IMG/VR virus record: IMGVR_UViG_3300032030_000058
Location: 9,733-73,732 of that record
From: a virus
DNA length: 64,000 bases
Reading direction: 5' to 3' (one strand)
Shown: positions 7,043-51,965 of the stretch, one piece after another
How positions within the stretch are numbered: the stretch's first letter is position 1
How the letters are laid out: each line of letters begins with the position of its first letter
Made by a program: the position numbers and the translations under genes
The notes under the pieces: model-generated
Databases searched by the model: none
What the model saw: only the letters and a program-made list of their open reading frames with translations
Told to the model about the DNA's origin: nothing

Positions 7043-7050
7043 AGCACTTT

Positions 7051-7227
7051 TTACATTTTTTCATATTTTGGGCATGGTTTACTTTCGTAGTAAACTTCTT
7101 TTGGTTTTAGATCGAATTTTGAACAATAAGTCGCCAAAAAATTAACTAATCCATATTTACATGTCAAACATGGAATAGTTGATTTATCTGGTAATTGAAT
7201 TGTTAATTCTTCATTTTCATCAATCAT
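7051..7227 (-). CDS. small Cys-rich (zinc-ribbon-like) protein
   Basis: Start at ATG 7225-7227 preceded by AAGGAG; CxxC...CxxxC-like spacing (CLTC...CSK...CPKY). Confidence 0.45.
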   Translation of the reverse strand: MIDENEELTIQLPDKSTIPCLTCKYGLVNFLATYCSKFDLKPKEVYYESKPCPKYEKM

Positions 7228-13602: not shown

Positions 13603-13660
13603 TATGGAAATATGCTATGTTTCTTTTTTGTGGCTTATCAAGTTTAACTTATAATATATA

Positions 13661-14059
13661 TTATAACTTAAACAGTTTTTTTGCTTCTTCCCATTCTTCT
13701 TCGTCGTCGTCACCGTTTTCGGATTCTCCTTCCTCAGTGACTTCTTCTTCATCAGAATCGGATTTAGCATCTTCAAGTTTGTTTTCGAATTCTTCTTTAG
13801 ATTCGCCAGGACCAATTTCTTTAGCGGCTTCAGCTTCTTCAGCGGTTACGCCTTCAGCACCAGCACCTTCTGGACCTGCATCTTTTTCGAAGTCTTCGTC
13901 AAGTTCTAACCCGATAGCGCTGCATAATGTGCCTAAATCTTCTTTAGACATTTTACCTTCACGGAAGAGAGGCCATAAAATACCATCTGCGATATCTTCT
14001 GGGGTTAAACCTGCATCTTGAAGTTTTTGCATCATTTCTTGGATTTCTTCATTATTCAT
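13661..14059 (-). CDS. acidic scaffold-like protein
   Basis: 132 aa, highly acidic, C-terminus EEWEEAKKLFKL. Confidence 0.5.
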   Translation of the reverse strand: MNNEEIQEMMQKLQDAGLTPEDIADGILWPLFREGKMSKEDLGTLCSAIGLELDEDFEKDAGPEGAGAEGVTAEEAEAAKEIGPGESKEEFENKLEDAKSDSDEEEVTEEGESENGDDDEEEWEEAKKLFKL

Positions 14060-14077
14060 GTGTGATTTACTCCTTAA

Positions 14078-14839
14078 TTAATGAAACTTCAACTTAAATA
14101 ATTTTTCTGCTTCCTCTTCTTCACTCATTTGAGGCGCAGGTTTTTGCTCATTACCGAGCGCTTTAATACGTGTCACAGGAGCTGGGGCTGGGGCTGGGGA
14201 AGCAGCTTCCGCTTCTTTCTCAGCATTAGCTTCGCCTTTCCATTCAGGATGGGTTTCTAATTCGGAGTTAATATTATCTAATGTAACTTCAAGGCCTTTT
14301 CCTTTAAGAATTAATTTGACATCCTCGTAACGATCCGCATCAACACCGGATTGCATAAGAGCGATAGTTTCCGACATATCAGTAAGTTTTTTGTCTGTGT
14401 CTGATTTTTCTTGTTCCCAAGACGCTTTATCAGCATCATACATTTCTTTCTGTGTGTCGTATCTTTGTGCATTAGCAACTAAAGCATCAAGTTCTTCTTC
14501 ATTTTTGACACCATAACGGCCATAAATGTAGTTAAACGTTTTCTCTCTAGTTTTAACACGAGTATCACCAACTAACTTATCCACATCATCCTGAGTGAAA
14601 GTTTTAATGGATGTGTCGATAGCACCGTTTTCCTCGACTAATTCTGTTTCTGCTGGTTGGGACACACCATTAGCTGCATCTTCTTCAGTATAAACAGCGC
14701 CAGCTTCGGCTTCATTTTCCTCTGCGGAAGTGGCAGCAGGATCGGATGTTTCAGTCATTTCTGGTGATTTGGAAACAACTTCTTCATCTGTTTTTTCTTC
14801 TTCGCCTTCCAAAATTGGTTTTTTTTCTAAATCTTCCAT
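14078..14839 (-). CDS. scaffolding protein (acidic, coiled)
   Basis: 253 aa, Glu-rich, C-terminus EEEEAEKLFKLKFH, immediately upstream of the capsid gene. Confidence 0.55.
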   Translation of the reverse strand: MEDLEKKPILEGEEEKTDEEVVSKSPEMTETSDPAATSAEENEAEAGAVYTEEDAANGVSQPAETELVEENGAIDTSIKTFTQDDVDKLVGDTRVKTREKTFNYIYGRYGVKNEEELDALVANAQRYDTQKEMYDADKASWEQEKSDTDKKLTDMSETIALMQSGVDADRYEDVKLILKGKGLEVTLDNINSELETHPEWKGEANAEKEAEAASPAPAPAPVTRIKALGNEQKPAPQMSEEEEAEKLFKLKFH

Positions 14840-15077
14840 GTTTAACCTCCTGGAACGAGTAATTAACGTAAAAATAATTTACTAGAATTATATTAGCATG
14901 TATTTTTCGTGTGTGTAAATAAAAAATGATAAGGTTTTGTGCGTGGGCGTGAAGAATAACAATATGCTGGAAAAAAATGTTGACTTGGGTGGGCCGAAAA
15001 ATTTGTGGAGGCATTTAGAAAAAACCCAATCGGCAAAAACCCCCTCAACACCCCTCCCCCTACCTGATGTCCTCAAA

Positions 15078-15104
15078 CAAAAAATGACTAGCGTCCTAGT
15101 CATA
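15078..15104 (-). terminator. rho-independent terminator (minus-strand direction) in the late-operon upstream region
   Basis: Perfect 8 bp stem ATGACTAG-cgtc-CTAGTCAT followed by a T-run on the minus strand. Confidence 0.5.
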
Positions 15105-15283
15105 GTTCGAGAGGTTGCAGCCTCTTAGTTATAAAGGAGGATGTTCATTATATGTCCGAAATGAAAACCTACAGCTTTAGTATACAGCATCGATTCGTTA
15201 CCGTGCAAGAAAATTCCATCACCAGACAAGTTGGATTGCCCATAGAGCTTTTGAAAAAAATCGCACTATACTAAAAATAATTG

Positions 15284-15312
15284 TTGACAACATATATTAA
15301 TGGATATATAAT
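15284..15312 (+). promoter_or_regulatory. early sigma-A-type promoter P1 (TTGACA-17-TATAAT)
   Basis: -35 15284-15289, -10 15307-15312, AT-rich UP element aaaataattg. Confidence 0.7.
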
Positions 15313-15343
15313 TTAGGTAGTTAAAAACAAAGGAGCAAAAAAT

Positions 15344-15727
15344 ATGACACTAAATGAACTCTTAAAAAAACTTAGCACCATTAAAAAATATCGCTGGTTC
15401 CATGTGGTTTACACTAGCACTATCAATGGTTACAAAAAAACCACTACAAGCATTGTTAGGTTTGCTGACTATAAAAAGGCTGATGGCACCATGAACGAGC
15501 CTAAAAAGACCAATGTAAGCGAGTATATCATGCATTGTGAAAATACCGGCAATACCAATTTACAAGTATTCGTTACCAAATGCAAAAACCATAAGCCACA
15601 TAGTGTTTATGAGTATATGGGCAAAGAGATTAGTAAAGAGGAATATTATGAGGGTTCTCACAAAAAGCCATCTTCACCATCTCAATGTTTCTATCTCACC
15701 ATTGACAACATTGTAGCAATTTACTAA
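15344..15727 (+). CDS. early hypothetical protein
   Basis: Promoter 15284-15312, AAGGAG RBS, 127 aa. Confidence 0.6.
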   Translation: MTLNELLKKLSTIKKYRWFHVVYTSTINGYKKTTTSIVRFADYKKADGTMNEPKKTNVSEYIMHCENTGNTNLQVFVTKCKNHKPHSVYEYMGKEISKEEYYEGSHKKPSSPSQCFYLTIDNIVAIY

Positions 15728-15740
15728 GGGGGTTATAAAA

Positions 15741-15914
15741 ATGTTCAAAGTTGGAGATACCATTAAAATTATCTACATGGAAGGAGAGCCACAATATAGT
15801 GGCAAAATAGGCACCATTACTCACATTGACGATATTGGTCAATTACATGGGACTTGGGGTGGTTGTGCACTAATTCCAAATGTGGACGAGTTCCAAAAAA
15901 TTGAGAGCCGATAA
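15741..15914 (+). CDS. small early protein (57 aa)
   Basis: AAGGGGG RBS 6 nt upstream of ATG; followed by terminator 15904-15930. Confidence 0.5.
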   Translation: MFKVGDTIKIIYMEGEPQYSGKIGTITHIDDIGQLHGTWGGCALIPNVDEFQKIESR

Positions 15915-15930
15915 CATCGGTTCTTTTTTT
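15904..15930 (+). terminator. intrinsic terminator
   Basis: CCGAT-aac-ATCGG hairpin plus T8. Confidence 0.6.
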
Positions 15931-15978
15931 TAGCATCAATCGACCGTGCAAGAAGGAGATGGCGGCGGATGTCGATGG

Positions 15979-15996
15979 TTCCTAAAATCTTAGGAA
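15979..15996. promoter_or_regulatory. palindromic operator TTCCTAAAATCTTAGGAA upstream of P2
   Basis: Near-perfect 18 bp inverted repeat ~20 bp upstream of the -35. Confidence 0.5.
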
Positions 15997-16016
15997 AAAT
16001 TTTCTATAAATAATTG

Positions 16017-16045
16017 TTGACAATATATATACAATAATATATAAT
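16017..16045 (+). promoter_or_regulatory. early promoter P2 (TTGACA-17-TATAAT)
   Basis: -35 16017-16022, -10 16040-16045. Confidence 0.7.
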
Positions 16046-16072
16046 GGTAGTGTAGATAAGGAGATAAAAACT

Positions 16073-16198
16073 ATGTTCGCTAAAACCTATGTAATTATGC
16101 CATTGGAGTGGGATTATGATAATGACCACCATAATATGATAAGATACCTATCTAATCAAGGTATCATTGTTCCTAGTGATATTGTTCGCTTGGATTAA
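16073..16198 (+). CDS. small early ORF (42 aa), possibly the 5' part of a frameshifted gene
   Basis: Promoter 16017-16045, AAGGAG RBS; a further 41-codon ORF follows in the +1 frame (16213-16338) without an RBS before the terminator. Confidence 0.35.
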   Translation: MFAKTYVIMPLEWDYDNDHHNMIRYLSNQGIIVPSDIVRLD

Positions 16199-16212
16199 TT
16201 GTGTGGCTCTAT

Positions 16213-16338
16213 GGAGTGTTCAAAGGGCTATGCGGTTGGCACCATTACAAAACTTAAAAAGGAATATCCATATGTCAAGTTTGGACTATTCGAGGGAGCA
16301 ACTTGGGGTTCACTGACCATTGTTCAAGAGTTCTAATT
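16213..16338 (+). pseudogene. possible downstream fragment of a frameshifted early gene
   Basis: ORF MECSKGYAVG... in a different frame from 16073-16198, no SD, same transcription unit. Confidence 0.25.
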
Positions 16339-16339
16339 G

Positions 16340-16367
16340 AAGTATCCTGATGCGGGATACTTTTTTT
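16340..16367 (+). terminator. intrinsic terminator
   Basis: GTATCC-tgatgc-GGGATAC plus T7. Confidence 0.65.
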
Positions 16368-16452
16368 ATGCGATGCTGGACCGTGCTAAAAAATCCGATG
16401 GCGGATCCAGGATGAAGCTCACCATCAATGTTTGTTAACTTATAATTTTGTG

Positions 16453-16481
16453 TTGACAATATATATAAAATGATATATACT
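16453..16481 (+). promoter_or_regulatory. early promoter P3 (TTGACA-17-TATACT)
   Basis: -35 16453-16458, -10 16476-16481. Confidence 0.65.
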
Positions 16482-16505
16482 ATAATTAGAAAGAAGGAAC
16501 AAATC

Positions 16506-16931
16506 ATGAGTGAAAAACAAAAGCAAGAAGCCATTAAAAGAATGAGACTTCTACAAATTATGAATAGCGTCATTACCGACTTTAAAAATAATGGTCGTAT
16601 TTATTATAGTGAAAGGCAGAATTCAATGTTTCCAGCCACACTGTATTGGTTAGACAATAAACCTGAATGGGTTGCAATGGTCAAGGACTTTGAAAAAAGA
16701 AATCATGCCCTTGTCTATCATGCTCAATTAACTCACACACAAGTGGGAGACTTGCTATCGTTATTATATGTTTCTAATGACGAGTCAAGCTGGGAAGAGG
16801 ACCGCGAATGGATAGTCAATGAAGATGGCTTGATGTATTCAATGGTCATTAATCTTGACGACGACACATTCAGCGACATGGGGACCATTCAAGTTCGACC
16901 AGCGATGGGAGGTGTAGTAAGAACGGCGTAA
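16506..16931 (+). CDS. early hypothetical protein
   Basis: Start at ATG 16506 preceded by GAAGGAAC RBS; promoter 16453-16481. Confidence 0.6.
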   Translation: MSEKQKQEAIKRMRLLQIMNSVITDFKNNGRIYYSERQNSMFPATLYWLDNKPEWVAMVKDFEKRNHALVYHAQLTHTQVGDLLSLLYVSNDESSWEEDREWIVNEDGLMYSMVINLDDDTFSDMGTIQVRPAMGGVVRTA

Positions 16932-17042
16932 CAGCCGCTCTTTTTTTTAGCTTCAATTACCGTGCTAATACAGTGGATCCAGATTCAGATGCGGATCGTC
17001 TTCTGGCGTTCGAATCTTTTTAAAAAAATTTAATTTTAGGTA

Positions 17043-17071
17043 TTGACAATATATATAAAATAATATATACT
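17043..17071 (+). promoter_or_regulatory. early promoter P4 (drives ncRNA candidate)
   Basis: -35 17043-17048, -10 TATACT 17066-17071; 27/29 identical to P3. Confidence 0.65.
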
Positions 17072-17077
17072 ATATAT

Positions 17078-17289
17078 GTAAGATGAATAAACAAGTGTTG
17101 GGAAGATGATGTTCTCTTACAGCGAATAACCAAAGACTGCTATAGTGTCATAATAGGCGTAAGGTGGACGAAACCCTGGTTGGTTGGGCCGACGACTCGT
17201 ATGGTGTTTGCTACGTCACAACGTTAAATAGAACGTAGAACATAACTTAATAGTTTGGGAGAAGGTGGTTCGAAACACCTTCTTTTTTT
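17078..17289 (+). ncRNA. candidate ~210 nt non-coding RNA (promoter to terminator with no ORF and no RBS)
   Basis: Canonical early promoter 17043-17071 followed by no SD or ORF longer than 8 codons, internal hairpins (GTAAGA/TCTTAC, CTACGT/ACGTAG), intrinsic terminator 17259-17289. Confidence 0.45.
17259..17289 (+). terminator. intrinsic terminator ending the ncRNA candidate
   Basis: GAAGGTG-gttcgaaa-CACCTTC plus T7. Confidence 0.65.
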
Positions 17290-17393
17290 GCACCTGATAA
17301 CGCAACTGGATCTAAATCGCCGCATCAGATGAACCGTGCTAAACAGCATCATCTGGAATTCGGATGGAGCTGGGAAATTCTTCAAAAATAATG

Positions 17394-17422
17394 CTTGACG
17401 ATATATATACAATAATATATAA
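17394..17422 (+). promoter_or_regulatory. early promoter P5 (TTGACG-17-TATAAT)
   Basis: -35 17394-17399, -10 17417-17422. Confidence 0.65.
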
Positions 17423-17451
17423 TATAAGTAGTTAATAGGAGGAATACTAAT

Positions 17452-17868
17452 ATGACCATTAGACAAACATTATCAAACTACGTTATAAGTGAAATGACCA
17501 ACGAGGAACTATTCACTGAACTATCAAATTCTTTACCATTCAAGAGCAAAAGAGAGCATACTAAATGGTTATCGTTAAAGGGCACACAACAATGGTTGAC
17601 CATGACCGAAAAAGTTCTTAAACGAGCCAATACGCAAGTTTACCATGTCAAATTGGAACGTGGTTCACGTATTGAAATCAATGGTACAGGTTTCTATTCA
17701 TTTGAGGACTATTACACAAGTATCAAACTTGAACCAAATGAGAGCCATCGTTACATCAAGGAACAAACCATTGACCATATTCGTCAACAAATTGCTACTA
17801 GTATCCTTAAAAATGTCAAGAGATGGAAAGATATTGGTATTGATATGGCTGACCTAAGAGTGTTGTAA
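17452..17868 (+). CDS. early hypothetical protein
   Basis: Promoter 17394-17422, AGGAGG RBS, 138 aa. Confidence 0.6.
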   Translation: MTIRQTLSNYVISEMTNEELFTELSNSLPFKSKREHTKWLSLKGTQQWLTMTEKVLKRANTQVYHVKLERGSRIEINGTGFYSFEDYYTSIKLEPNESHRYIKEQTIDHIRQQIATSILKNVKRWKDIGIDMADLRVL

Positions 17869-17883
17869 ATCAAACCATAAACA

Positions 17884-17920
17884 TAAAAAAGAGAAGGGTT
17901 ATTCGCCCTTCTTTTCTTTT
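17884..17920. terminator. bidirectional terminator
   Basis: AGAAGGG-ttattcg-CCCTTCT flanked by an A-run and a T-run; the same hairpin family recurs at 60397-60430. Confidence 0.6.
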
Positions 17921-18141
17921 TCCATCGCAGCTTTGGCCAGATCCTTGATGTATTGAGCCGTGCTGTATTTGGATCTCAGGAAGTCATAGATCATCATCTG
18001 TTCTGGATCATCTTTCTTAAACATGATGGTCATTGAACAGTAGTTACTCTTGTTATACTTCTTGATGTAATCTCTCTTCCTCTTGTAATATTCTTCTGTT
18101 GGCATAAATTCTCCTCCTTCTCCATCAGCATCTGGATCCAC
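17899..18141 (-). CDS. hypothetical protein (minus-strand gene inside the early cluster)
   Basis: Own minus-strand promoter 18161-18189 (TTGACC-17-TACAAT), GGAGGAG RBS, bidirectional terminator 17884-17920. Confidence 0.55.
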   Translation of the reverse strand: MDPDADGEGGEFMPTEEYYKRKRDYIKKYNKSNYCSMTIMFKKDDPEQMMIYDFLRSKYSTAQYIKDLAKAAMEKEKKGE

Positions 18142-18160
18142 TATCCGTGCTGTGTATATA

Positions 18161-18189
18161 ATTGTATATTAGGATTCCAGATTGGTCAA
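18161..18189 (-). promoter_or_regulatory. minus-strand promoter for 17899-18141 (TTGACC-17-TACAAT)
   Basis: -35 18189-18184, -10 18166-18161 read on the minus strand. Confidence 0.55.
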
Positions 18190-18196
18190 GAAAAAA

Positions 18197-18225
18197 TTTA
18201 CAAGTATATATAAAATGGTTATAAT
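18197..18225 (+). promoter_or_regulatory. promoter P6 (TTTACA-17-TATAAT), drives sRNA candidate
   Basis: -35 18197-18202, -10 18220-18225. Confidence 0.6.
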
Positions 18226-18231
18226 AATGAT

Positions 18232-18338
18232 GAAGGTGAATTAATTAAGCCCCCAATTAAATAACGCAATTCATTAAACTTTTTCATTTCAAACTAAAAA
18301 TCCATCACCTTCAGCAGTCCCTCGTGGACTGTTTTTTT
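18232..18338 (+). ncRNA. candidate ~105 nt small RNA
   Basis: Promoter TTTACA-17-TATAAT at 18197-18225, no ORF longer than 5 codons, closing helix GAAGGTGA/TCACCTTC, terminator 18313-18338. Confidence 0.4.
18313..18338 (+). terminator. intrinsic terminator
   Basis: CAGTCC-ctcgt-GGACTG plus T8. Confidence 0.65.
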
Positions 18339-18413
18339 TGATTCAGCTAACCGTGCTATACGGCGACGCCAGATGAATCAAAATTGAGCTGGAAAAAAAT
18401 TTAATTTACCCCC

Positions 18414-18442
18414 TTGCAAATATATATACTTTGATATATAAT
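18414..18442 (+). promoter_or_regulatory. early promoter P7 (TTGCAA-17-TATAAT)
   Basis: -35 18414-18419, -10 18437-18442. Confidence 0.65.
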
Positions 18443-18470
18443 ATAGATAGTTAAAAGGGAGATAAAAAAC

Positions 18471-18761
18471 ATGACAACTACTTCAAAACAAACTAAGGCT
18501 TGGAAAGAACTTTTCTCAGCCATATTCGAAGAAAATGGATACTTCGAAAACTTACGTCAATTCGCAAAGGACCATGGTTATAGCAATCAAGACATGACTG
18601 AAATGCTTTATGAAAGCTACATGCACAATTGCCCTGAAGGTATGGGACCTTATTATTTCATGGACAGTATGGAAGAGCATTACGAGGACATGAAAGACAG
18701 CGTGGAAAATATTTACGATATGGTGGACTGGCTATGGGACCATCAAGCGTGGAAGGAGTAA
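18471..18761 (+). CDS. early acidic hypothetical protein
   Basis: Promoter 18414-18442, AAGGGAG RBS. Confidence 0.6.
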   Translation: MTTTSKQTKAWKELFSAIFEENGYFENLRQFAKDHGYSNQDMTEMLYESYMHNCPEGMGPYYFMDSMEEHYEDMKDSVENIYDMVDWLWDHQAWKE

Positions 18762-18765
18762 AACA

Positions 18766-19059
18766 ATGGAAAACAAATACTATGAGCTTGGTTGGAGGCT
18801 TAATTCAACACAAAGGAAAGCCCTAAAAGACCTTGGCTACCATGTGTATGCAACTCGTTCTTGGGACGAAGGTTGTGGCTCTACATTGGAACATCGTGTC
18901 CTTGTTAACCACGAAACAGACGTCATTACAAACTTCCCAGCATTGGACGACAACAATCCTGAAGACATGGCTAACGACTTCTACGAGCGCATGGAAGAAT
19001 TCAATGCTACCAGCGACCTAGAAATCACCCCTGAAATGAGAACCATCTTGGAAATGTAA
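18766..19059 (+). CDS. early acidic hypothetical protein
   Basis: Coupled 4 nt after upstream gene, GGAGTAA RBS. Confidence 0.55.
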   Translation: MENKYYELGWRLNSTQRKALKDLGYHVYATRSWDEGCGSTLEHRVLVNHETDVITNFPALDDNNPEDMANDFYERMEEFNATSDLEITPEMRTILEM

Positions 19060-19065
19060 AGGAGG

Positions 19066-19098
19066 GAGAGGCTGCCATCAGCAGCTTCTTTTTTTTAT
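19066..19098 (+). terminator. intrinsic terminator
   Basis: GCTGC-catca-GCAGC plus T9. Confidence 0.65.
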
Positions 19099-19248
19099 GC
19101 CTCCTTCACTGCACGGTTAGAAGCTGGATTCGCCTGAATTCTGGAGATTCATCTGGAAGCTCACCTGGGGATTCATCTGGGCGATTACCGTGCTCGATCG
19201 ATGTCCACAGAGCTTCTACCAGAATCCAAAAAATAATTAAAATAATGG

Positions 19249-19277
19249 TTGCAAGTATATATACATTAATATATAAT
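19249..19277 (+). promoter_or_regulatory. early promoter P8 (TTGCAA-17-TATAAT)
   Basis: -35 19249-19254, -10 19272-19277. Confidence 0.65.
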
Positions 19278-19306
19278 ATAGGTAGTTAATAGGAGGAACA
19301 TATCCC

Positions 19307-20038
19307 ATGGAAAAAACAACAAACATATTGCTTGGTCTAGCAATTAAACACAATGGTAATTGGAGTAGCATTTACCATGACTTACAACAAAAGGACTATG
19401 AAGGTGCAGAGGCACTCGCAGAGGCTTATACAGGCTCTTTTATCACTATCCTTGACGAAGAATATCCTGACTACTTAAAACAAGCCCACAAGCCACCATT
19501 TGTGCTATTTTATAATGGCGACATTTCTTTATTAAAAAAGGAACACACACGAGTATGCGTATCAACAAGTAGAGCAACTGACGAAGACTCACTTTCTTTC
19601 TTGCACTCTTTAATTAACAATGACTACAACGACATTGACTATGTTATAAGCGAAACCACACACAACATTGAAATAGACAGGAAGAAACACCACGCCATTT
19701 GCGTTGCAGGTTGTGGTCTTGAACTCGTCAATTGCACCAACTACGACTTAATAATCAGTGAATATCCTAGTGGCACACCAAAAGCCTCGGAAGGTATGCT
19801 TGGAGCATATCGTATTATGGCAGGTATTTCTTCAAAAATAATGGTCGGTAAAGTTAAAAGACTAAGCGGAACGAATGCCCTTATCTCCTTCGGTTTATAT
19901 CAAAACAAGGACATATTAGTTATGCCTGTTAAACCAAAGGAAAACATTGAGGAAGACCTTGGCAATAATAAACTTATCTACGACGGAGCAATACCACTAG
20001 TAGACAAGGAACAGTTAGCGTTCTATCTAGGTCATTAA
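19307..20038 (+). CDS. DprA/Smf-like (Rossmann/SLOG-type) protein, divergent
   Basis: HHAICVAGCGLEL...LIISEYPSGTP...GAYRIMAGISSKIMVGKVKRLSGTNALIS matches the DprA core (TIAVLGSGLD...LLISEYPPGTP...RNRIIAGLS...SGSLITA); the canonical SGLARGID motif is replaced by SETTHNIEID. Confidence 0.55.
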   Translation: MEKTTNILLGLAIKHNGNWSSIYHDLQQKDYEGAEALAEAYTGSFITILDEEYPDYLKQAHKPPFVLFYNGDISLLKKEHTRVCVSTSRATDEDSLSFLHSLINNDYNDIDYVISETTHNIEIDRKKHHAICVAGCGLELVNCTNYDLIISEYPSGTPKASEGMLGAYRIMAGISSKIMVGKVKRLSGTNALISFGLYQNKDILVMPVKPKENIEEDLGNNKLIYDGAIPLVDKEQLAFYLGH

Positions 20039-20042
20039 AAAA

Positions 20043-20070
20043 GTGTCGGAAATTTATCCGACATTTTTTT
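20043..20070 (+). terminator. intrinsic terminator
   Basis: GTCGGAAATTTATCCGAC plus T7. Confidence 0.65.
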
Positions 20071-20114
20071 CTGGGGCGGTCACCGTGCTATGCGGCAGAT
20101 GATCCGGATCCAGC

Positions 20115-20132
20115 TTCCTAAAATTTTAGGAA
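20115..20132. promoter_or_regulatory. palindromic operator TTCCTAAAATTTTAGGAA upstream of P9
   Basis: Perfect 18 bp palindrome 24 bp upstream of the -35. Confidence 0.5.
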
Positions 20133-20156
20133 ATTAAATTCACCTAAAAATAATTG

Positions 20157-20185
20157 TTGACATCAATTTGTATATAATGTAATAT
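20157..20185 (+). promoter_or_regulatory. early promoter P9 (TTGACA-17-TAATAT)
   Basis: -35 20157-20162, -10 20180-20185. Confidence 0.65.
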
Positions 20186-20212
20186 ATATAACGTAAACAG
20201 GAGGTATACCAA

Positions 20213-20431
20213 ATGAAAACAACCATCTCATTCTACAACTCAACTACTGCCTTATGGGTAAACTTTGACGACAAATTTATGGCTCTCAAAGACCAGCACT
20301 CAAAAGGTGAAATGAGTGAAGTTTACGATTTCGGTGTTGGCTTAATCGAAGTTAAGGCAACTGATGGTGAAATCGAAGCTACTCGTAAAGTGCTTGAAAC
20401 ACAAGGGTTCACATTCATTTATATCGAATAA
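20213..20431 (+). CDS. early hypothetical protein
   Basis: Promoter 20157-20185, AGGAGG RBS, 72 aa. Confidence 0.6.
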   Translation: MKTTISFYNSTTALWVNFDDKFMALKDQHSKGEMSEVYDFGVGLIEVKATDGEIEATRKVLETQGFTFIYIE

Positions 20432-20523
20432 GAAGGATGTCCATCAGGGCATTCTTTTTTTATGTCTCAATCACCGTGCTATATTGCCACGATCCGAACA
20501 TCTAAAAAACTATAAATAATTAT

Positions 20524-20552
20524 TGACTTCTATATATAAAAGGATATATATT
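20524..20552 (+). promoter_or_regulatory. early promoter P10 (TTGACT-17-TATATT)
   Basis: -35 20524-20529, -10 20547-20552; first of a tandem pair. Confidence 0.6.
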
Positions 20553-20624
20553 ATAGACAGGTAGTTGAAGAGAGCACCTCAAAAAATCAACTACAAAAAA
20601 AATTAAAAAAAATAAAAAAACCTA

Positions 20625-20653
20625 TTGACACATTTTAAAAAATAATGTAATAT
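20625..20653 (+). promoter_or_regulatory. early promoter P11 (TTGACA-17-TAATAT)
   Basis: -35 20625-20630, -10 20648-20653. Confidence 0.65.
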
Positions 20654-20741
20654 ATAGGTGTAAGGTAAAGAACGAGGAACGTTCACGAGGGCCTTACGAA
20701 CAAACTTAAAACGTGGAAGAACCACTATAGGAGAATTAAAA

Positions 20742-21023
20742 ATGTTTGTAAAAATTACTCGAATTAACAACCAAAATCACGAAAAAGAATTAGTAGTCAA
20801 CACTGACGAAATCGTCTTTCTAAGCGAATGCGAAGACCACATCAACTATGACAAGCCTATCGCATACGAAGAAACCACTGACGAAGACACAGGTATCATT
20901 ACCAAAGTCCCAAGTGAGTGGGAAATCGAAAAACGTTATGTTATCGGTTTCAAAAACGGAAAACACCCACAAATCGTAGACAAAACCAATTACGAAAAAT
21001 TAGCCGAAATCTTACTCAAATAA
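20742..21023 (+). CDS. early hypothetical protein
   Basis: Tandem promoters 20524-20552 and 20625-20653, ~80 nt structured leader, TAGGAGAA RBS. Confidence 0.6.
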   Translation: MFVKITRINNQNHEKELVVNTDEIVFLSECEDHINYDKPIAYEETTDEDTGIITKVPSEWEIEKRYVIGFKNGKHPQIVDKTNYEKLAEILLK

Positions 21024-21046
21024 GAAAGTAGGGTAAAATAGCCACT

Positions 21047-21082
21047 GGAAGAGAGCCCACCTCGAACTCTCTTCTTTTTTTG
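21047..21082 (+). terminator. intrinsic terminator
   Basis: GAAGAGAG-cccacctcgaa-CTCTCTTC plus T7. Confidence 0.65.
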
Positions 21083-21145
21083 TCTTCGCGACGGCGGATG
21101 GAAGGCGGATCAACGTGGGCATCCTATGGCACGGTCATATGATTC

Positions 21146-21163
21146 TTCCTAAATTTTTAGGAA
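21146..21163. promoter_or_regulatory. palindromic operator TTCCTAAATTTTTAGGAA upstream of P12
   Basis: Third copy of the same palindrome, 15 bp upstream of the -35. Confidence 0.5.
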
Positions 21164-21178
21164 ACTTGCAAATTTGTG

Positions 21179-21207
21179 TTGACAATATATATCAAATAAT
21201 ATACAAT
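21179..21207 (+). promoter_or_regulatory. early promoter P12 (TTGACA-17-TACAAT)
   Basis: -35 21179-21184, -10 21202-21207. Confidence 0.65.
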
Positions 21208-21231
21208 GGTAGCATAAGGAGGGCATATCCC

Positions 21232-21537
21232 ATGAAAAGCAAATACGTAGAGTATAGAGATTTCTATATTACATCATTCGTTGACTACGATAAGGAATTG
21301 TTCGTTATGGTCAACATCAGTGGCGACACACTAGTGGAAAACTTCACTAGCAACTTCTTCTCTAAAGAAGACTTAGTTATTGACTATTATAAGTTAATCT
21401 CCAAATGTGCCACAGGAGGGGACGAAGACGATATTATTCCATACACACGCAAGTATATGGCGCATATCGTGAGAGTTTCACAAGAGGAACTTAATATGGA
21501 CTATATTAATTTCTCTCTAAAGGGGGTCCAATTATGA
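21232..21537 (+). CDS. early hypothetical protein
   Basis: Start at ATG 21232 after TAAGGAGGG; promoter 21179-21207. Confidence 0.6.
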   Translation: MKSKYVEYRDFYITSFVDYDKELFVMVNISGDTLVENFTSNFFSKEDLVIDYYKLISKCATGGDEDDIIPYTRKYMAHIVRVSQEELNMDYINFSLKGVQL

Positions 21538-21755
21538 GACGCTACTACATAATTACCGACCTTGTCCACAGTCAAGACTATCTTACGTGGGCGTATGACC
21601 ATAGTGACATCCTTGGTGCAGCAATATGCTTTGCTGAAAAACAAGGCGTCACCATCAATGACCTGCGTATGTATGCCTGCTCCACCAAAAAAGAGTGGGA
21701 CGCATACGGAACAGCTCACTTCTCTCGTATCAAAGCGTGGCAATGCACCAAATAA
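21534..21755 (+). CDS. early hypothetical protein
   Basis: ATGA overlap with upstream gene; followed by two terminators. Confidence 0.55.
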   Translation: MRRYYIITDLVHSQDYLTWAYDHSDILGAAICFAEKQGVTINDLRMYACSTKKEWDAYGTAHFSRIKAWQCTK

Positions 21756-21989
21756 GGCATCAAACGGCTCGATTCAGCCGTTTTTTGTTGTTTTCCGAGT
21801 AATTCCTCGTTTTCATACACAAACACATCTTAAACGGCGGATTCGTAACATCCGCTTTTTTGATGCTTCAGGGACGTTCACCGTGCTAACCAGATGAATC
21901 GAGTTAGTACCAGAATCATCCCACATCTAAGATGTGAATTACTGTCCATCAAAAAATTAATTTTTTTTGCAAATTATTCATTTTTATAT

Positions 21990-22185
21990 TAACTATAAAA
22001 TAGAATAATTATGCAAAGGGACCATTTTGGTGAATCGAGTTAGCGTTTTGCTATTATTATCTTACATATATATATACATACACATATTGGGAATTATAGG
22101 AAAATTCTAACTCAACTAATCAAATTTAACATTAGTAGATAGACTACTAAAAAAATCAACGTTCTATAAATAATTATTGACTTGG
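21990..22185 (+). repeat. ~190 bp direct repeat, copy A
   Basis: ~80% identical over ~110 bp to 28250-28445 (tttggtgaatcgagttagcg...atatatatacatacacatat...) and shares the identical ctataaataattattgac promoter-like end. Confidence 0.6.
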
Positions 22186-22347
22186 CACTTTTTGGCGTTT
22201 TTTGAGCTTTTTGCTTTCCTTTCTTCTTCTAAGAATTCTTCTTCTTCTCCTTGCGATGCTTCTGGATCAGGACCTAGCACGGATAGCTTCATGTGCATGT
22301 CCAGGACCGGGTTAGCATCAGGGTGAAAATTTGTTACAAAAATATAT

Positions 22348-22375
22348 TGACAACCATTTTCAAATAATATATACT
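22348..22375 (+). promoter_or_regulatory. promoter P13 (TTGACA-16-TATACT), drives sRNA candidate
   Basis: -35 22348-22353, -10 22370-22375. Confidence 0.6.
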
Positions 22376-22381
22376 GTAGTT

Positions 22382-22487
22382 GCAATGATGGAGATATGTA
22401 TTCTCCTATAACTTAAAAACCCATAGTCATGTTAATTCCTTTCATTGCACTAATCTGTCAGTTTACATAGCCTGGCAGATTTTTTTA
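22382..22487 (+). ncRNA. candidate ~105 nt small RNA
   Basis: Promoter TTGACA-16-TATACT at 22348-22375, only 8- and 12-codon ORFs, internal hairpin GGAGA/TCTCC, terminator ATCTGTCAG/CTGGCAGAT plus T7 at 22453-22487. Confidence 0.4.
22453..22487 (+). terminator. intrinsic terminator ending the sRNA candidate
   Basis: ATCTGTCAG-tttacatagc-CTGGCAGAT plus T7. Confidence 0.6.
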
Positions 22488-22599
22488 TGCCCAGCTCAGG
22501 ATCTGGACAGGATCTGAATCCGATTTCGCATATTAGCACGGTAGGTTAATTATAGAATCGATGCCGCTTCAGAAAATGAAAAAATACTATAAAAATATA

Positions 22600-22628
22600 T
22601 TGACATATACATGTATATAATGTAATAT
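22600..22628 (+). promoter_or_regulatory. early promoter P14 (TTGACA-17-TAATAT)
   Basis: -35 22600-22605, -10 22623-22628. Confidence 0.65.
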
Positions 22629-22653
22629 ATAATTGTCAATAGGAGGTCACAAT

Positions 22654-23268
22654 ATGGCTATAAAAATCTCAACTACAAACTCAAAACTAGGGTTCATGAT
22701 TCCTAGTATATCACTACCACCGCAACACTCTTGTCGTCCTGACGCGCCTTGTGCGAAGGGTTGCTATGGTAAAAAGGGCAATTTCTTATTTAGTAACGTT
22801 CAACAGTCTCATATGGTCAACTTTGAAGAATATCAAAAAAATCCTAACGGGTACTTCAAACAAATTATTGAATACTTAAATTGCGGACTCATATCACATA
22901 AATTCTTTCGTTGGCATACTGTCGGCGACATCGTAGACTACAATTATTTTCTCGGAGTCGTTAGTGTGGCGCGTAAATGTAAAGACACTAAGTTCTTACT
23001 ATTCACGAAGAAGTTCGACATCATCAACGACTACGTGGGCGCCGGTAACACTATTCCTAGAAATTTATCAATTGTGTTTTCCGCGTGGCATAAGGGTTTT
23101 AAAGTCGACAATCCTTATGACTTCCCTGTCGCGTATGTGTTCTTTAAGAAGACAGAACTCAATCCTGACATCCCAGCTATGGCTATCCCTTGTTCTGGTC
23201 ACTGTCCATCTTGTTTAGCCTGTTGGAGTCTTAAAAAAGGTCAATCAGTGTTCTTCAATCAACACTAA
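22654..23268 (+). CDS. Cys-rich early protein (N-terminal CxxxxxCxxxC and C-terminal CSGHCPSCLAC clusters)
   Basis: Start at ATG 22654 after AGGAGG; promoter 22600-22628; 204 aa. Confidence 0.55.
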   Translation: MAIKISTTNSKLGFMIPSISLPPQHSCRPDAPCAKGCYGKKGNFLFSNVQQSHMVNFEEYQKNPNGYFKQIIEYLNCGLISHKFFRWHTVGDIVDYNYFLGVVSVARKCKDTKFLLFTKKFDIINDYVGAGNTIPRNLSIVFSAWHKGFKVDNPYDFPVAYVFFKKTELNPDIPAMAIPCSGHCPSCLACWSLKKGQSVFFNQH

Positions 23269-23328
23269 TTAAACCGCCGAAGTAGGGACGCGGTATATAA
23301 GACAGCCTTGGGATAGCGGACCAACGCT

Positions 23329-23359
23329 AGAAGGGAATCGATCCCTTCTTTTTTTTATG
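23329..23359 (+). terminator. intrinsic terminator
   Basis: GAAGGGA-atcga-TCCCTTC plus T8. Confidence 0.65.
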
Positions 23360-23496
23360 CGGATTTATCTAGCACGGTAATGGATCCACGGCGGCGATTC
23401 TCTGGATCCAGACAGCTTCAGATCAAGATGAATAACCGTGCCGGAAGCTGTACGATCAGAATCCATCCTGGATCAGAAAAAAACTGTAAATTTATA

Positions 23497-23526
23497 TTGA
23501 CATATATATATCCAATAATATACAAT
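23497..23526 (+). promoter_or_regulatory. early promoter P15 (TTGACA-18-TACAAT)
   Basis: -35 23497-23502, -10 23521-23526. Confidence 0.6.
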
Positions 23527-23552
23527 GAGAGTGTCAATAGGAGGATATACAA

Positions 23553-23924
23553 ATGACAAACTACAACACTTTAACACCTTACAAACATCATCAAATCGAA
23601 GACTGGGGCGGCGTTATCAGTGACGACTTCAAATCATTCGCTCGCAAGTGGCAAAACTTCTTAAAACGCATGTGTGCAAATAACGGTTGGGAGCTATGCA
23701 ACTTCAATCGCGGACACTACTACTGTTCCTGGTTCATCAAAAACGGTGACAAATACGTTTACTGCTCATTCGGAGACGTCAGGCACTTCTCCAGAGACTG
23801 GTATAAACTCATTCTCCATCGCGTCGCAAAAAATGAACGCGACTATACCGGTGGAAGTAACTGGTACACCGAACTCGAAAATCTCGAAGGAGCAATTACC
23901 AGACGGTTCCAGACTGGATATTAG
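23553..23924 (+). CDS. early hypothetical protein (Cys/Trp-rich)
   Basis: Promoter 23497-23526, AGGAGG RBS, bidirectional terminator 23934-23968. Confidence 0.6.
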   Translation: MTNYNTLTPYKHHQIEDWGGVISDDFKSFARKWQNFLKRMCANNGWELCNFNRGHYYCSWFIKNGDKYVYCSFGDVRHFSRDWYKLILHRVAKNERDYTGGSNWYTELENLEGAITRRFQTGY

Positions 23925-23933
23925 TTCAAAAAA

Positions 23934-23968
23934 TAGAAAAGAGCTGATCATCTCAGCCCTTTTTTATT
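23934..23968. terminator. bidirectional terminator between convergent genes
   Basis: GCTGA-tcatc-TCAGC with an A-run upstream and a T-run downstream. Confidence 0.55.
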
Positions 23969-24761
23969 TCTTAGAATTAATAGCACGGTTACGCCAGCTC
24001 TGCATCAACTTCCTGGTTCTTCTCATATCCGTCTTCATCTGCAATGGTAAACTCGCATCACCAAAACTCTTCTTCACCACCTGCATCAATTTTAAACGGT
24101 CCCTGTAGAAGCGATACTGTTGAACCTCATACGAAATATATTCCTGAGCCGAAACACGCCTTAAACGGCCGATTTCAGCGAAAGAAACAGGAATCAATCT
24201 GTGGCGACAGTTCTTACGTGTGCATAGGTATGGCGGCTGAAGCATCACTTCGTCCACACTTAGTAACCCGGCGTTAAATATATATGCCTTCTCTTCATCT
24301 GAATACTCAGCGTTCTTTTTATAATAAATTCTGCCCTGATACGCAGCGTGGTCTTTAGCTGGATCTGTGAACTCCGTGCAATAGTAGAACTTTGAATCCC
24401 CCTGAAGAACATCCACGAGCTCTTCATGCTTCTTACGGTACTCGATATTATCCACAACATCGTTCTTGATCTTCTCCAGCATCGGGGTATCATCTCTAAG
24501 CACGGCATATATCGATGCGGCGCGATCATCTGCATCAACTTTCCGGGCTGCACCAGCTACGGTATGTTTGTAGAAATTCATGGCAAATAACCAGAGCGAG
24601 TGCCGCTCATTATCGTTCAGATGCTGAACATTCTGGATGATCTTCTTCACCTGACGCATCACTGATCTTTTATCAGCACGGTTAAGTACGCTAGATGTGA
24701 TCACCGCCACGATCTTTAGCTCTGCATTATATATTAAATTCTTATAATACCCTGTGTTCAT
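23964..24761 (-). CDS. hypothetical protein, possible MuF-like minor head protein (follows the portal)
   Basis: 265 aa, GC-richer codon usage shared with the portal gene; the position after the portal parallels SPP1 gp6-gp7. Confidence 0.35.
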   Translation of the reverse strand: MNTGYYKNLIYNAELKIVAVITSSVLNRADKRSVMRQVKKIIQNVQHLNDNERHSLWLFAMNFYKHTVAGAARKVDADDRAASIYAVLRDDTPMLEKIKNDVVDNIEYRKKHEELVDVLQGDSKFYYCTEFTDPAKDHAAYQGRIYYKKNAEYSDEEKAYIFNAGLLSVDEVMLQPPYLCTRKNCRHRLIPVSFAEIGRLRRVSAQEYISYEVQQYRFYRDRLKLMQVVKKSFGDASLPLQMKTDMRRTRKLMQSWRNRAINSKK

Positions 24762-24799
24762 GGTTTTATTATATAAAAAAGAGCTCCTAAATGGAACTC

Positions 24800-51623: not shown

Positions 51624-51699
51624 TGGCAACGATGCCTGGGCTCGAACCAGGGAATATTAGAGTCAAAGTCTAATGCCTTACCAACTTGGCTACATCGTT
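51624..51699 (-). tRNA. tRNA-Gln (anticodon UUG)
   Basis: 76 nt; acceptor AACGATG/CATCGTT, anticodon stem TTAGA/TCTAA with loop CTTTGAC, T-arm CCTGG-TTCGAGC-CCAGG, encoded CCA. Confidence 0.85.
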
Positions 51700-51786
51700 A
51701 TAATGATGGCGAAGTTACCCAATTACCGACTTTCATAGAACTAATTAGCGTTCTCCAGTTTTCATCGCTTCGCCTGGGATAAATTT

Positions 51787-51873
51787 TGGCGGAAAGCCAG
51801 GGACTCGAACCCTGAATGCCTTTCGGCACAACGGTTTTCAAGACCGCCTGAATACCAATTATCACAGCCCTCC
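51787..51873 (-). tRNA. tRNA-Ser (anticodon UGA), class II
   Basis: 87 nt; anticodon loop CTTGAAA, long variable arm GCCGAAAGGC, T-arm CAGGG-TTCGAGT-CCCTG, encoded CCA. Confidence 0.8.
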
Positions 51874-51874
51874 G

Positions 51875-51962: not shown

Positions 51963-51965
51963 CGT

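Follow-up and report, generated by a model that had tools for sequence, protein, structure and literature searches.

Small, presumably early genes under strong host-type promoters

In SPO1, the host-takeover module consists of small early genes in several short operons, equipped with strong host-type promoters and ribosome-binding sites (PMC6873191). Kayvirus host-takeover units carry strong sigma-70 early promoters, typically with a TAATAT variant of the -10 element, and intrinsic terminators (PMC7698491), while T4-type phages harbour promoter-early stem-loop (PeSL) cassettes in their hyperplastic regions, where elements of a terminator plus an early promoter surround small variable ORFs (PMC2839356, PMC4122927). 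The early promoters of phi29 are controlled by p4, and by the host Spo0A via 7-bp 0A boxes, TGTCGAA (PMC2731898). The block at 15.28-23.96 kb of the window, by which we mean the whole 64-kb stretch of viral DNA analysed here, is a hyperplastic accessory-gene island, and it belongs to an uncultivated phage of ~75-81 kb, the host of which is probably among the Clostridia.

Congruent with SPO1, the island is a cluster of small genes whose host-type promoters and ribosome-binding sites are strong, its presumed role being to redirect the host. The SPO1 module however is part of a terminal redundancy of 12-13 kb in a Herelleviridae myovirus, whereas the island is located between head genes of an unrelated ~78 kb phage and displays no protein homology to the module; we also know of no post-terminator site described for SPO1. 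The Kayvirus (Twort-like) units share the strong sigma-70 promoters, the TAATAT variant and the intrinsic terminators, yet they adjoin long terminal repeats, are mostly polycistronic and have no reported common upstream operator. As for PeSLs, elements are kept while ORFs are swapped between related phages, but phage lineage and host phylum differ, the spacers here are longer (60-150 bp), with an extra invariant 7-10 bp site at fixed and quantised spacing, and this site reaches into the neighbouring structural genes. The likeness to phi29 comprises short asymmetric sites in either orientation, one protein that would switch all strong early promoters, and a host regulator as a possible reader of the sites. 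The sequence is however CCGTGCT rather than TGTCGAA, there are ~30 sites as opposed to ~6, and they occupy phased positions a long way upstream, follow terminators and also occur within a structural gene.

Two further systems are relevant for the geometry and the location. Class I activation by CRP occurs from -61.5, -72.5, -82.5 and -92.5, and the island site centres are similarly spaced at intervals of one helical turn on the face of the promoter; here, however, the protein is putative, the promoters are already consensus, and the effect may be repression. In Mu-like Pseudomonas phages, the acr-aca anti-defence loci, which have a strong early promoter under tight control and 1-3 genes on the head-gene strand, are inserted at the same head-module junction, between a Mu F/G-like and a protease/scaffold gene. 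In contrast, the island holds at least 14 genes on the strand opposite to the head genes, and no Acr or Aca homologue was identified among them.

Layout of the island and its relatives

Between 15,284 and 23,963 we recovered 15 plus-strand promoters, near-consensus and of the sigma-A/sigma-70 type, 14 called small genes, three non-coding units, ~15 intrinsic terminators, strong Shine-Dalgarno sites and one divergent minus-strand gene (Table 1). The called plus-strand genes encode 41-243 aa, not 57-243 aa as stated in the earlier note, and are mostly of unknown function. The island occupies the strand opposite to the flanking head genes, with gp7-like and portal genes on one side and scaffold and major head genes on the other, and nothing establishes for it the terminal-repeat setting of the takeover regions to which the earlier note likens it.

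Table 1. Features of the island and its surroundings in window coordinates; each plus-strand promoter interval begins at the start of its -35 element.
Feature	Position	Strand	Promoter	Content	Terminator or remark
Major head gene	12292-13602				beyond scaffold, left side
Scaffold gene	14078-14839	-			left flank of island
CCGTGC(T) zone	15201-26625	.			29 of 30 window sites; 30th at 13385
Zone sites, plus strand	15201, 15944, 16381, 16960, 17334, 17958, 18145, 18351, 19188, 20083, 20474, 21881, 23436, 24374	+
Zone sites, minus strand	19111, 21129, 22277, 22536, 23372, 23983, 24500, 24676, 24898, 25766, 25884, 26037, 26206, 26487, 26620	-
Unit 1	15284-15931	+	15284-15312 (12/12)	15344-15727 (127 aa); 15741-15914 (57 aa, DUF4314); bicistronic	15903-15931
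Palindrome TTCCTAAAAtcTTAGGAA	15979-15996	.			upstream of promoter 16017
Unit 2	16017-16367	+	16017-16045 (12/12)	16073-16198 (41 aa); possible second ORF 16211-16336; perhaps bicistronic	16339-16367
Unit 3	16453-16948	+	16453-16481	16507-16931 (141 aa)	16921-16948
Unit 4	17043-17289	+	17043-17071	non-coding transcript, ~210 nt	~17258-17289
Unit 5	17395-17921	+	17395-17423	17452-17868 (138 aa)	17889-17921, bidirectional
Minus-strand unit	17889-18189	-	18189-18161	18105-17899 (68 aa)
Unit 7	18197-18339	+	18197-18225	non-coding transcript, ~110 nt	18313-18339
Unit 8	18414-19096	+	18414-18442	18471-18761 (96 aa); 18766-19059 (97 aa); bicistronic	19068-19096
Unit 9	19249-20070	+	19249-19277	19307-20038 (243 aa, DprA-like)	20044-20070
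Unit 10	20157-20461	+	20157-20185, class B	20213-20431 (72 aa)	20430-20461
Units 11/12	20523-21081	+	20523-20552 and 20625-20653, tandem	20742-21023 (93 aa); structured 5' leader	21048-21081
Unit 13	21179-21861	+	21179-21207	21232-21537 (101 aa); 21534-21755 (73 aa); bicistronic	21762-21786 and 21836-21861
AT-rich non-coding element	22025-22181	.			72% identical copy at 28281-28437
Unit 14	22347-22486	+	22347-22375	non-coding transcript, ~105 nt	22454-22486
Unit 15	22600-23356	+	22600-22628, class B	22654-23268 (204 aa, Cys-rich, GP88-family)	23329-23356
Unit 16	23497-23963	+	23497-23526	23553-23924 (123 aa, 4 Cys)	23937-23963, bidirectional, common to gp7-like gene
Minor head gene, SPP1 gp7/Mu F-like	23964-24761	-			assigned by position; right flank of island
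Portal gene	24800-26572	-			6 sense-strand CCGTGC sites
Small terminase subunit (TerS) gene	27210-27587	-			assigned by synteny and HTH fold

All 15 plus-strand promoters previously claimed were located, and their extended consensus was recovered by repeat finding as families of 6-10 copies. Rather than being uniformly near-identical, however, they fall into two classes, class A, TTGACAATATATATAcAATAATATATAAT, and class B, TTGACA..N17..TAATATATA, the latter also found on the minus strand outside the island. Within 13-26 kb, TTGACA-N17/18-TATAAT at a level of at least 11/12 yields nine matches, all of them plus-strand island promoters, and a weight matrix built from ten island promoters detected nothing above 18 bits outside the island on either strand of the 64 kb. 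Only about five comparable promoters are present in the other 55 kb. Terminator-like sites amount to 21, compared with 8.8 +/- 3.5 in shuffles, and 15 hairpin-plus-T-run terminators were placed by folding. Promoter 20523 has no terminator of its own and is in tandem with 20625. Nor does each unit hold a single gene: three are bicistronic (15344+15741, 18471+18766 and 21232+21534), and a fourth is possible (16073+16211).

The minus-strand gene formerly given as 17899-18141 is real, but its start is more likely the ATG at 18105, which is preceded by AGGAGG, agrees with an independent gene call and results in 68 aa; the divergent back-to-back promoters were found as described (18189-18161 minus and 18197-18225 plus). 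The protein is basic with three predicted helices; a DNA-binding fold was not confirmed, and no counterpart of the gene was found in more distant islands. One CCGTGCT (18145) is positioned at ~+3 to +9 relative to the promoter of this unit, and another (17958) within the last codons of the gene.

Among the products, the DprA-like protein of unit 9 was upheld by a match to Pfam PF02481 (7e-21), and it resembles ShosA/PsyrA antitoxins too. A host-takeover or anti-defence function is putative for every island protein, and the DprA/ShosA resemblance is only suggestive of one. The comparison to SPO1 and Twort-like takeover regions in the earlier note holds for the architecture of promoters, ribosome-binding sites, small genes and terminators, but not for protein families, as island proteins gave zero matches to those of SPO1 or Twort. 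Of the island genes, the GP88-family gene of unit 15 is conserved most widely, being present in 12 of 17 related islands, and a relative whose portal is 53% identical shows 77% conservation of the unit 4 non-coding transcript. Further copies of TTCCTAAAAtcTTAGGAA are located at 20115-20132 and 21146-21163, with similar sequences in relative B.

Each of the 18 related loci that we examined (portal identity 34-98%) had the same layout; their islands contain 6-18 promoters each, and the gene content is only partly common and shuffled in order. In island-less relatives, TerS-TerL-portal-gp7-scaffold-MCP are contiguous on one strand, without the motif. At the level of sequence, the related loci show a conserved architecture across a deep uncultivated clade, in which cassettes have evidently been gained, lost and reordered. 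Most likely, the island represents an immediate-early host-takeover or counter-defence module; its early timing and dependence on host RNA polymerase we infer from the promoter consensus. The clade-wide architecture, the cassette shuffling, the post-terminator CCGTGCT and its helical phasing go beyond the earlier note.

A site shared by terminators, promoters and head genes

The site CCGTGC(T), which each spacer carries in the extended form (T)ACCGTGCT(A), is the top region-specific 6-mer (p=1.5e-20). Thirty sites fall within 13.4-26.6 kb and none in the other 50 kb, compared with 2.5 expected within 13-27 kb and 5.9 outside. The six sites in the portal gene compare with 0.28-0.86 expected, four are within the coordinates of the gp7-like gene, and the first site of the zone is 48 bp upstream of the portal ATG. 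The TerS gene is separated from TerL (35066-36610) and lies beyond the start of the zone by ~0.6 kb. Across 18 loci, a single site in 133.6 kb upstream of portal compares with 16-31 per locus (11.6 kb) downstream, and every portal gene of the island-bearing loci has 6-7 sites inside. In relatives with a portal identity of ~50% or more, the zone boundary is sharp and falls 36-60 bp upstream of portal, and in those with 41-44% the zone begins inside or after portal. Even at 34% portal identity the hexamer itself remains unchanged, with flanks that diverge. In this window the orientation of CCGTGCT flips across the AT-rich element, and in all loci the portal-near sites have one orientation and the distal sites the other. 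Seven sites in L030 are antisense to island ORFs, and perfect palindromes, ACCGTGCACGGT, are present in L019.

CCGTGC(T) was detected within 60 nt of 165 of 198 terminators (72/86 in a first set, 93/112 in a second), with the distance from T-run to site having its mode at 11-15 nt and 9-17 nt, respectively, in both orientations. The distance to the next -35 is helically phased with a period of 10.6 bp (R=0.589, n=134, the 95% level of the null being R=0.20; Rayleigh p ~6e-21, which overstates independence as the related loci share ancestry). Antisense sites are phased as well (R=0.445, n=49), and site centres are found at ~-62, -72, -83, -94, -104 and -115 relative to the start site. Inverted site pairs are phased with each other, and twelve control words were without comparable periodicity. 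The quantised spacing is not accounted for by slippage of tandem repeats. Since the same site is located behind terminators and in register with the next promoter, it points to one factor controlling the whole block.

Possible roles of the CCGTGCT site

We lean towards a host-polymerase-driven accessory island, the promoters of which form one regulon under a putative CCGTGCT-binding factor. Host RNA polymerase would then fire all units once the DNA enters the cell, with terminators and the opposite orientation insulating units and head genes, and a protein sitting directly behind each T-run possibly adding insulation. One putative sequence-specific factor, of phage or host origin, would be placed on the helix face of the polymerase at every island promoter, so that the whole island is switched together as one regulon. 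As the promoters match the consensus already, shut-off or modulation, of the kind exerted by phi29 p4 or Spo0A, is likelier than activation; since such promoters need no activator, the sign of the regulation is a guess. The conserved spacers may double as recombination linkers, shuffling cassettes between related phages as T4-type PeSLs do. A promoter-linked operator does not explain the dense portal and gp7-like sites, the large-scale orientation pattern, or why the terminator distance is the fixed one.

The latter distance is what a roadblock would account for: a CCGTGCT-bound protein would stall the polymerase while the active site of the enzyme is over the U-tract, forcing termination and yielding reinforced terminators or polar insulators, with the portal and gp7 sites halting antisense read-through from the island. 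In a stalled bacterial RNA polymerase, the active site is roughly 14 bp from the leading edge, and Pol I terminators combine a T-rich element with Reb1/TTF-I; the fixed T-run-to-site distance (mode 11-15 nt, both orientations, across 19 islands) is consistent with both. Reversed sites and inverted pairs moreover concentrate at the island end facing the convergent portal operon. Such a role is possible, if doubtful, as the terminators look strong already, sense sites within portal would hinder portal transcription too unless the block is polar, and a roadblock alone does not predict the helical phasing to promoters. It is compatible with the single regulon; the putative factor might serve in both capacities. 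Alternatively, CCGTGCT could mark ~15.0-26.6 kb as a long direct terminal repeat or first-entering segment of the SPO1, Twort-like or T5 pre-early type, congruent with the architecture, with a contiguous ~12 kb motif zone having a sharp conserved edge upstream of portal, with a head module split as by a collapsed terminal repeat in assembly, and with one stand-alone MEGAHIT contig ending 2.2 kb upstream of portal. We regard this as unlikely, however: the other contigs of 75-81 kb have unrelated end points, the repeat would unusually include the portal and gp7 genes, and, for relatives at 41-44% portal identity, the start of the zone is inside portal or beyond it.

The opposite orientation of the two arms in every locus (strings sss...(as)(as)...aaa), a separation that is perfect in L027, L029, L030 and L033, is reminiscent of a polar signal for a DNA translocase. 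CCGTGCT/AGCACGG could then be either a Chi-like site for the host AddAB/RecBCD, by which DNA ends are protected or recombined, or a KOPS-like guide towards a junction. Portal sites also turn over in position between relatives with density kept, and the portal-sense sites of L030 are inside opposite-strand ORFs. Nevertheless, the portal orientation is largely as codon accessibility predicts (sense 0.28 vs antisense 0.018 expected), both orientations take the same post-terminator position, promoter phasing, inverted pairs and palindromes are not properties of Chi or KOPS, and no conserved landmark marks the flip point, rendering this role quite improbable. We see a slim chance that the sites are spread-out recognition elements of the small terminase, pac- or packaging-related, to which the nearby TerS gene with its predicted HTH-type fold, the lack of the motif in the rest of the genome (0 vs 2-5 expected) and in island-negative relatives with divergent TerS would point. 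Thirty sites over 12 kb are however unlike any known pac or cos site, terminator coupling and sigma-70 promoter phasing have no packaging rationale, and the motif tracks the presence of the island rather than that of TerS itself. Finally, the visibly related linker families (D8, D15 and D17) and the shuffled cassettes are what would be expected of a functionless passenger of terminator-promoter linkers spread by duplication and recombination. This we disfavour as barely credible: the portal sites occupy all three frames at ~20 times expectation with positional turnover, the hexamer stays invariant despite its diverging flanks, and the phasing is quantised at one helical turn.

The plus-strand island at the head-module junction

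The window is part of a tailed-phage genome. Its substantial ORFs all lie on the minus strand, with a single exception, a block of plus-strand genes at 15.1-23.9 kb. This block, here termed the island, is located between the gp7-like and scaffold genes in the assemblies, so that the head module is split between the two (table below). Portal, MCP and TerL point to an uncultivated lineage other than the T4-like myoviruses: the best portals of isolated phages reach no more than 28% identity, and megablast of the island against INPHARED returned no nucleotide match among isolated phages.

Annotated features of the window (matches to PHROGs and Pfam where indicated)
Feature	Position	Strand	Evidence
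Major head protein	12292-13602	minus	PHROGs/Pfam
Scaffold protein	14078-14839	minus	PHROGs/Pfam
gp7/Mu F-like gene	23964-24761	minus	
Portal	24800-26572	minus	PHROGs/Pfam
Pnkp/RNA-ligase fusion	28986-31196	minus	PHROGs/Pfam; phrog_8238, 1e-200
SPFH protein	31256-32731	minus	PHROGs/Pfam
TerL	35066-36610	minus	PHROGs/Pfam
tRNA genes Gln-TTG, Ser-TGA, Ser-GCT	51624-51963		
Helicase, primase-helicase, PDDEXK nuclease			PHROGs/Pfam

The earlier note had described this region as about 15 monocistronic early units with one promoter type, similar to those of SPO1 or Twort. The promoter and gene array is real and beyond chance. Inspection and alignment identified fifteen plus-strand promoters sharing the extended consensus aaAtAattgTTGACAATATATATAcAATAATATATAATatAGgTAg, together with one minus-strand promoter. 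A consensus scan of 13-26 kb recovered nine promoters with at least 11 of 12 matches to TTGACA-N17/18-TATAAT, all of them plus-strand island promoters, and a weight matrix built from ten island promoters gave no score over 18 bits in the rest of the window; the promoters outside the island are few and weaker. AGGAGG-type SD sites follow the island promoters, terminator-like sites are 2.4-fold enriched over shuffles, and the units end in fifteen hairpin-plus-T-run terminators. For an identical public contig, an independent gene call placed 14 genes of 41-243 aa on the island strand and a single 68-aa gene on the other. The monocistronic layout needs correction: three units are bicistronic, and promoter 20523 (named, as are the units, by the start of its -35 box) is in tandem with 20625. 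The single promoter type had to be abandoned, as the promoters fall into two classes, the second of which, class B, has TAATATATA as its -10 and is used by a few minus-strand genes outside the island as well. Promoters of class B (TTGACA-N17-TAATATATA, A/T-rich upstream) precede minus-strand genes at 7043, 9163, 35009 and 60377, and the type recurs in all relatives, one island-less relative included.

Congruent with a likeness to SPO1 and Twort in architecture, small genes are placed behind strong sigma-A consensus promoters and strong ribosome-binding sites. The likeness does not extend to homology: Pfam matched three island products only, DprA (7e-21), GP88 (5e-23) and DUF4314, PHROGs added two families of unknown function, and neither library linked any product to SPO1 gp37-60 or the Twort Tre proteins. 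The terminal-repeat location of the SPO1 and Twort modules is, moreover, unproven for the island, which lies at the head-module junction where Mu-like Pseudomonas phages keep anti-CRISPR loci. At the left island edge, an unusual C-rich tract (ccccctcaacacccctccccctacc) occupies 15040-15103 between the first plus-strand unit and the scaffold gene, and a minus-strand terminator is present at 15103-15084.

The CCGTGC site and its geometry

Every terminator-to-promoter spacer holds ACCGTGCTA or its reverse complement, a feature that had escaped the earlier note. CCGTGC/GCACGG is found 30 times in 13.4-26.6 kb, against 2.5 expected, and not once in the remaining 50 kb, where approximately 2-6 copies are expected depending on the background model, making CCGTGC by far the most region-specific hexamer (p=1.5e-20). 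The zone extends beyond intergenic DNA. Its first site is positioned 48 bp upstream of the portal ATG, and the portal gene holds six sense-strand copies, distributed over all three frames, where synonymous shuffling predicts 0.86 and genome codon usage 0.28; the gp7-like gene adds four sites, both strands counted. Across 18 island-bearing loci, a single site is present in 133.6 kb upstream of portal versus 16-31 per 11.6 kb downstream, and within portal the sites are partly repositioned from one relative to the next at constant density. The motif is absent from island-less relatives, and a literature search on the motif string yielded nothing but noise. The zone is also distinct in oligonucleotide usage and richer in G+C (0.41-0.45). 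In 2-kb bins over the whole window, GATC is about two-fold depleted outside 22-28 kb but not inside (10-16 versus 1-5 per 2 kb), and the island has six copies of GGATCC, the rest of the window one.

The site is tied to the terminators as well as to the promoters. A copy is present within 60 nt downstream of 72 of the 86 predicted terminators in eight close islands and of 93 of 112 in eleven distant ones, with a modal distance from the end of the T-run of 11-15 nt and 9-17 nt, respectively, equal in both orientations. The distance from site to next -35 is quantised, with peaks at 28-29, 39-40, 50-51, 60-61, 70-72, 82-83 and 92-93 nt, and a period of 10.6 bp fits best (R=0.589, n=134, Rayleigh p ~6e-21; smoothed-null 95th percentile 0.20). 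Antisense sites keep the same phase to the -35, and twelve other frequent spacer words displayed no comparable periodicity. Nor do the spacers consist of tandemly repeated 11-mers, and the idea that their quantised spacing arose by slippage of an 11-bp repeat found no support. The distances therefore place the site centres at about -62, -72, -83, -94, -104 and -115 from the transcription start. Centres at such helical-turn positions represent the geometry of class I activator sites, and here as well the site-promoter distances differ by whole turns of the helix. The site shows partial dyad symmetry, with two perfect palindromes ACCGTGCACGGT in one relative, and inverted site pairs inside a spacer are phased with each other. 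Separately, a near-perfect palindrome, TTCCTAAAATTTTAGGAA, is found at 15979-15996, 20115-20132 and 21146-21163, 33-42 nt upstream of three island -35 boxes, with similar sequences in one relative (relative B) and at the end of contig L015; it may constitute a second operator.

Possible roles of the site

The phasing is hard to explain other than by a protein at CCGTGCT that contacts RNA polymerase at the island promoters, and we thus read CCGTGCT as a putative common operator, with the approximately 15 promoters as one regulon. Since the promoters already match the consensus, activation seems less likely than shut-off or modulation. Such control would be analogous to that of phi29, the early promoters of which are switched by p4 and by host Spo0A via 7-bp boxes (PMC2731898). 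This hypothesis, which needs a single site and a single factor, is directly testable through its phase-dependence. The fixed distance of 11-15 bp behind the T-run also fits a possible second role of the site as a roadblock: when bound, the site would hold polymerase on the U-tract, leading to protein-assisted termination or insulation, or alternatively would pass polymerase on to the next promoter. Intrinsic termination assisted by a protein, or RNA-polymerase recycling, may thus have a natural example here. We regard as improbable the more far-reaching proposal that CCGTGCT marks the ~12-kb segment from portal to island end as one unit, under a single factor that would couple intrinsic termination to re-initiation (a polymerase hand-off along a 15-cassette relay) and act as a polar insulator between the convergent island and head operon; if true, this would be control at the level of a DNA segment, for which no phage precedent is described.

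Our first hypothesis was instead a Chi or translocase signal, as the motif orientation flips near 22.0 kb to yield two opposed arms, portal-proximal sites pointing one way and distal sites the opposite, with inverted pairs between. Part of this pattern is trivial, however, because the portal sense orientation is about 15-fold more accessible via synonymous codons in a codon-usage simulation, yet not all of it, since one locus, L030, has seven portal-sense sites inside opposite-strand ORFs. Both orientations furthermore fill one post-terminator slot, with equal local position, and the sites are phased to promoters. The Chi reading was downgraded on the combined basis of codon accessibility, common slot and phasing. 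In L030 (44% portal identity) the seven CCGTGC copies are spaced about 115-150 bp apart at 13480-14200, antisense within G+C-rich island ORFs. A packaging-related reading is also conceivable, prompted by a candidate small terminase (TerS) gene at 27210-27587, upstream of portal and 0.6 kb from the zone boundary, but leaves the promoter phasing of the sites unexplained.

The 125-aa product of this gene has no match in family libraries and a predicted helical, HTH-like fold; TerS profile matches are located directly upstream of TerL in island-negative relatives, and synteny together with the HTH-like model assigns it as the small terminase. It was accordingly discarded as an island-specific regulator, being present in island-negative relatives as well. 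TerS adjoins portal, while TerL is found 7.5 kb further upstream, with the Pnkp/RNA-ligase, SPFH and other genes between; TerS, TerL and portal are contiguous in island-less relatives. The 68-aa opposite-strand protein is conserved in closer islands, with a site always at about +3 to +9 of its own promoter, and its gene was not found in the sequenced part of more distant islands. A role as ribbon-helix-helix repressor was considered but is not supported, the AF2 model being weak (pLDDT 67) and Foldseek, Pfam and PDB giving no match; a viral-contig scan with its alignment likewise gave no match.

An AT-rich non-coding element of approximately 160 bp is present at 22025-22181, with a 72% identical copy at 28281-28437, both ending in CTATAAATAATTATTGAC, a -35-like box without a -10. 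The element at 22025-22181 was considered as origin, genome end or flip landmark and set aside; in neither of two relatives (A and B) does the orientation flip coincide with a copy. Relative B retains the 28.3-kb copy in part, and the equivalent intergenic region is where one stand-alone 77-kb MEGAHIT contig ends.

Probable cassette exchange and island products

Public metagenomes hold more than 1000 portal homologues, several on contigs of 70-81 kb, delineating from sequence alone a large uncultivated phage clade. The sole taxonomic host clue is one 77-kb contig binned with a Clostridia MAG; a genome-contig scan for the host matched only the phage contig itself, in one Clostridia MAG. In all 18 loci compared, whose portal identities range from 34% to 98%, an opposite-strand small-gene array with individual terminators and 6-18 consensus promoters comes after portal and the gp7-like gene. 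The island is absent in four more distant relatives (33-40% portal identity), where the order TerS-TerL-portal-gp7-scaffold-MCP runs on one strand. Islands share some genes only, the GP88-like gene being the most persistent (12/17), and cassette content and order vary between relatives. This matches the pattern of T4-type hyperplastic regions, where PeSLs, composite terminator-promoter elements, mediate modular shuffling (PMC4122927). In the island too, a composite of stem-loop terminator and putative early promoter is repeated between small ORFs, and the conserved spacers would supply homology for cassette exchange. The region combines the architecture of a host-takeover island with PeSL-like cassettes, the new element being an added, putative cis-regulatory layer that is conserved over deep divergence, with very strong statistics.

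Phages carry their host-takeover and anti-defence genes in early accessory regions, and no other part of their genomes is so poorly understood. Most plausibly, the island is an immediate-early accessory module for host takeover or counter-defence. The early region of this clade would then consist of standardised exchangeable cassettes wired by one invariant cis-element with precise geometry, a signature usable to find early or counter-defence genes in metagenomic phages, and the compact consensus promoter/terminator/insulator units could serve as engineering parts in Firmicutes.

Among the products, the DprA/SLOG gene at 19307-20038 scores 74.8 bits against PF02481 (gathering cut-off 29.6), bearing out the earlier DprA-like assignment, with further matches to PDB DprA (4e-7), ShosA (PDB 9vzo, 1.4e-5) and PADLOC ShosA (1.3e-13). 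The protein resembles ShosA and PsyrA, DprA-like antitoxins of anti-phage toxin-antitoxin systems; a role as antitoxin mimic is a lead, not a finding. Units 17043, 18197 and 22347 have no credible ORF and are small-RNA-like. The 17043-17289 unit, with a transcript of approximately 210 nt, is 77% conserved, with long invariant blocks, in a relative of 53% portal identity and has five compensatory pairs (from two sequences only). A phage small RNA is its likely product; Rfam searches, run with gathering and with E-value thresholds, gave no credible match in the island. Outside the island, the 1133-aa ORF at 60580-63981 was matched by neither Pfam nor PHROGs at the thresholds applied, and a 537-aa protein at 7220-8833, among structural and tail genes, harbors an ADP-ribosyltransferase exoenzyme domain (PF03496, 5.5e-21). 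The Pnkp/RNA-ligase fusion and the three tRNA genes look like an RNA-repair kit, presumably directed against host anticodon nucleases.
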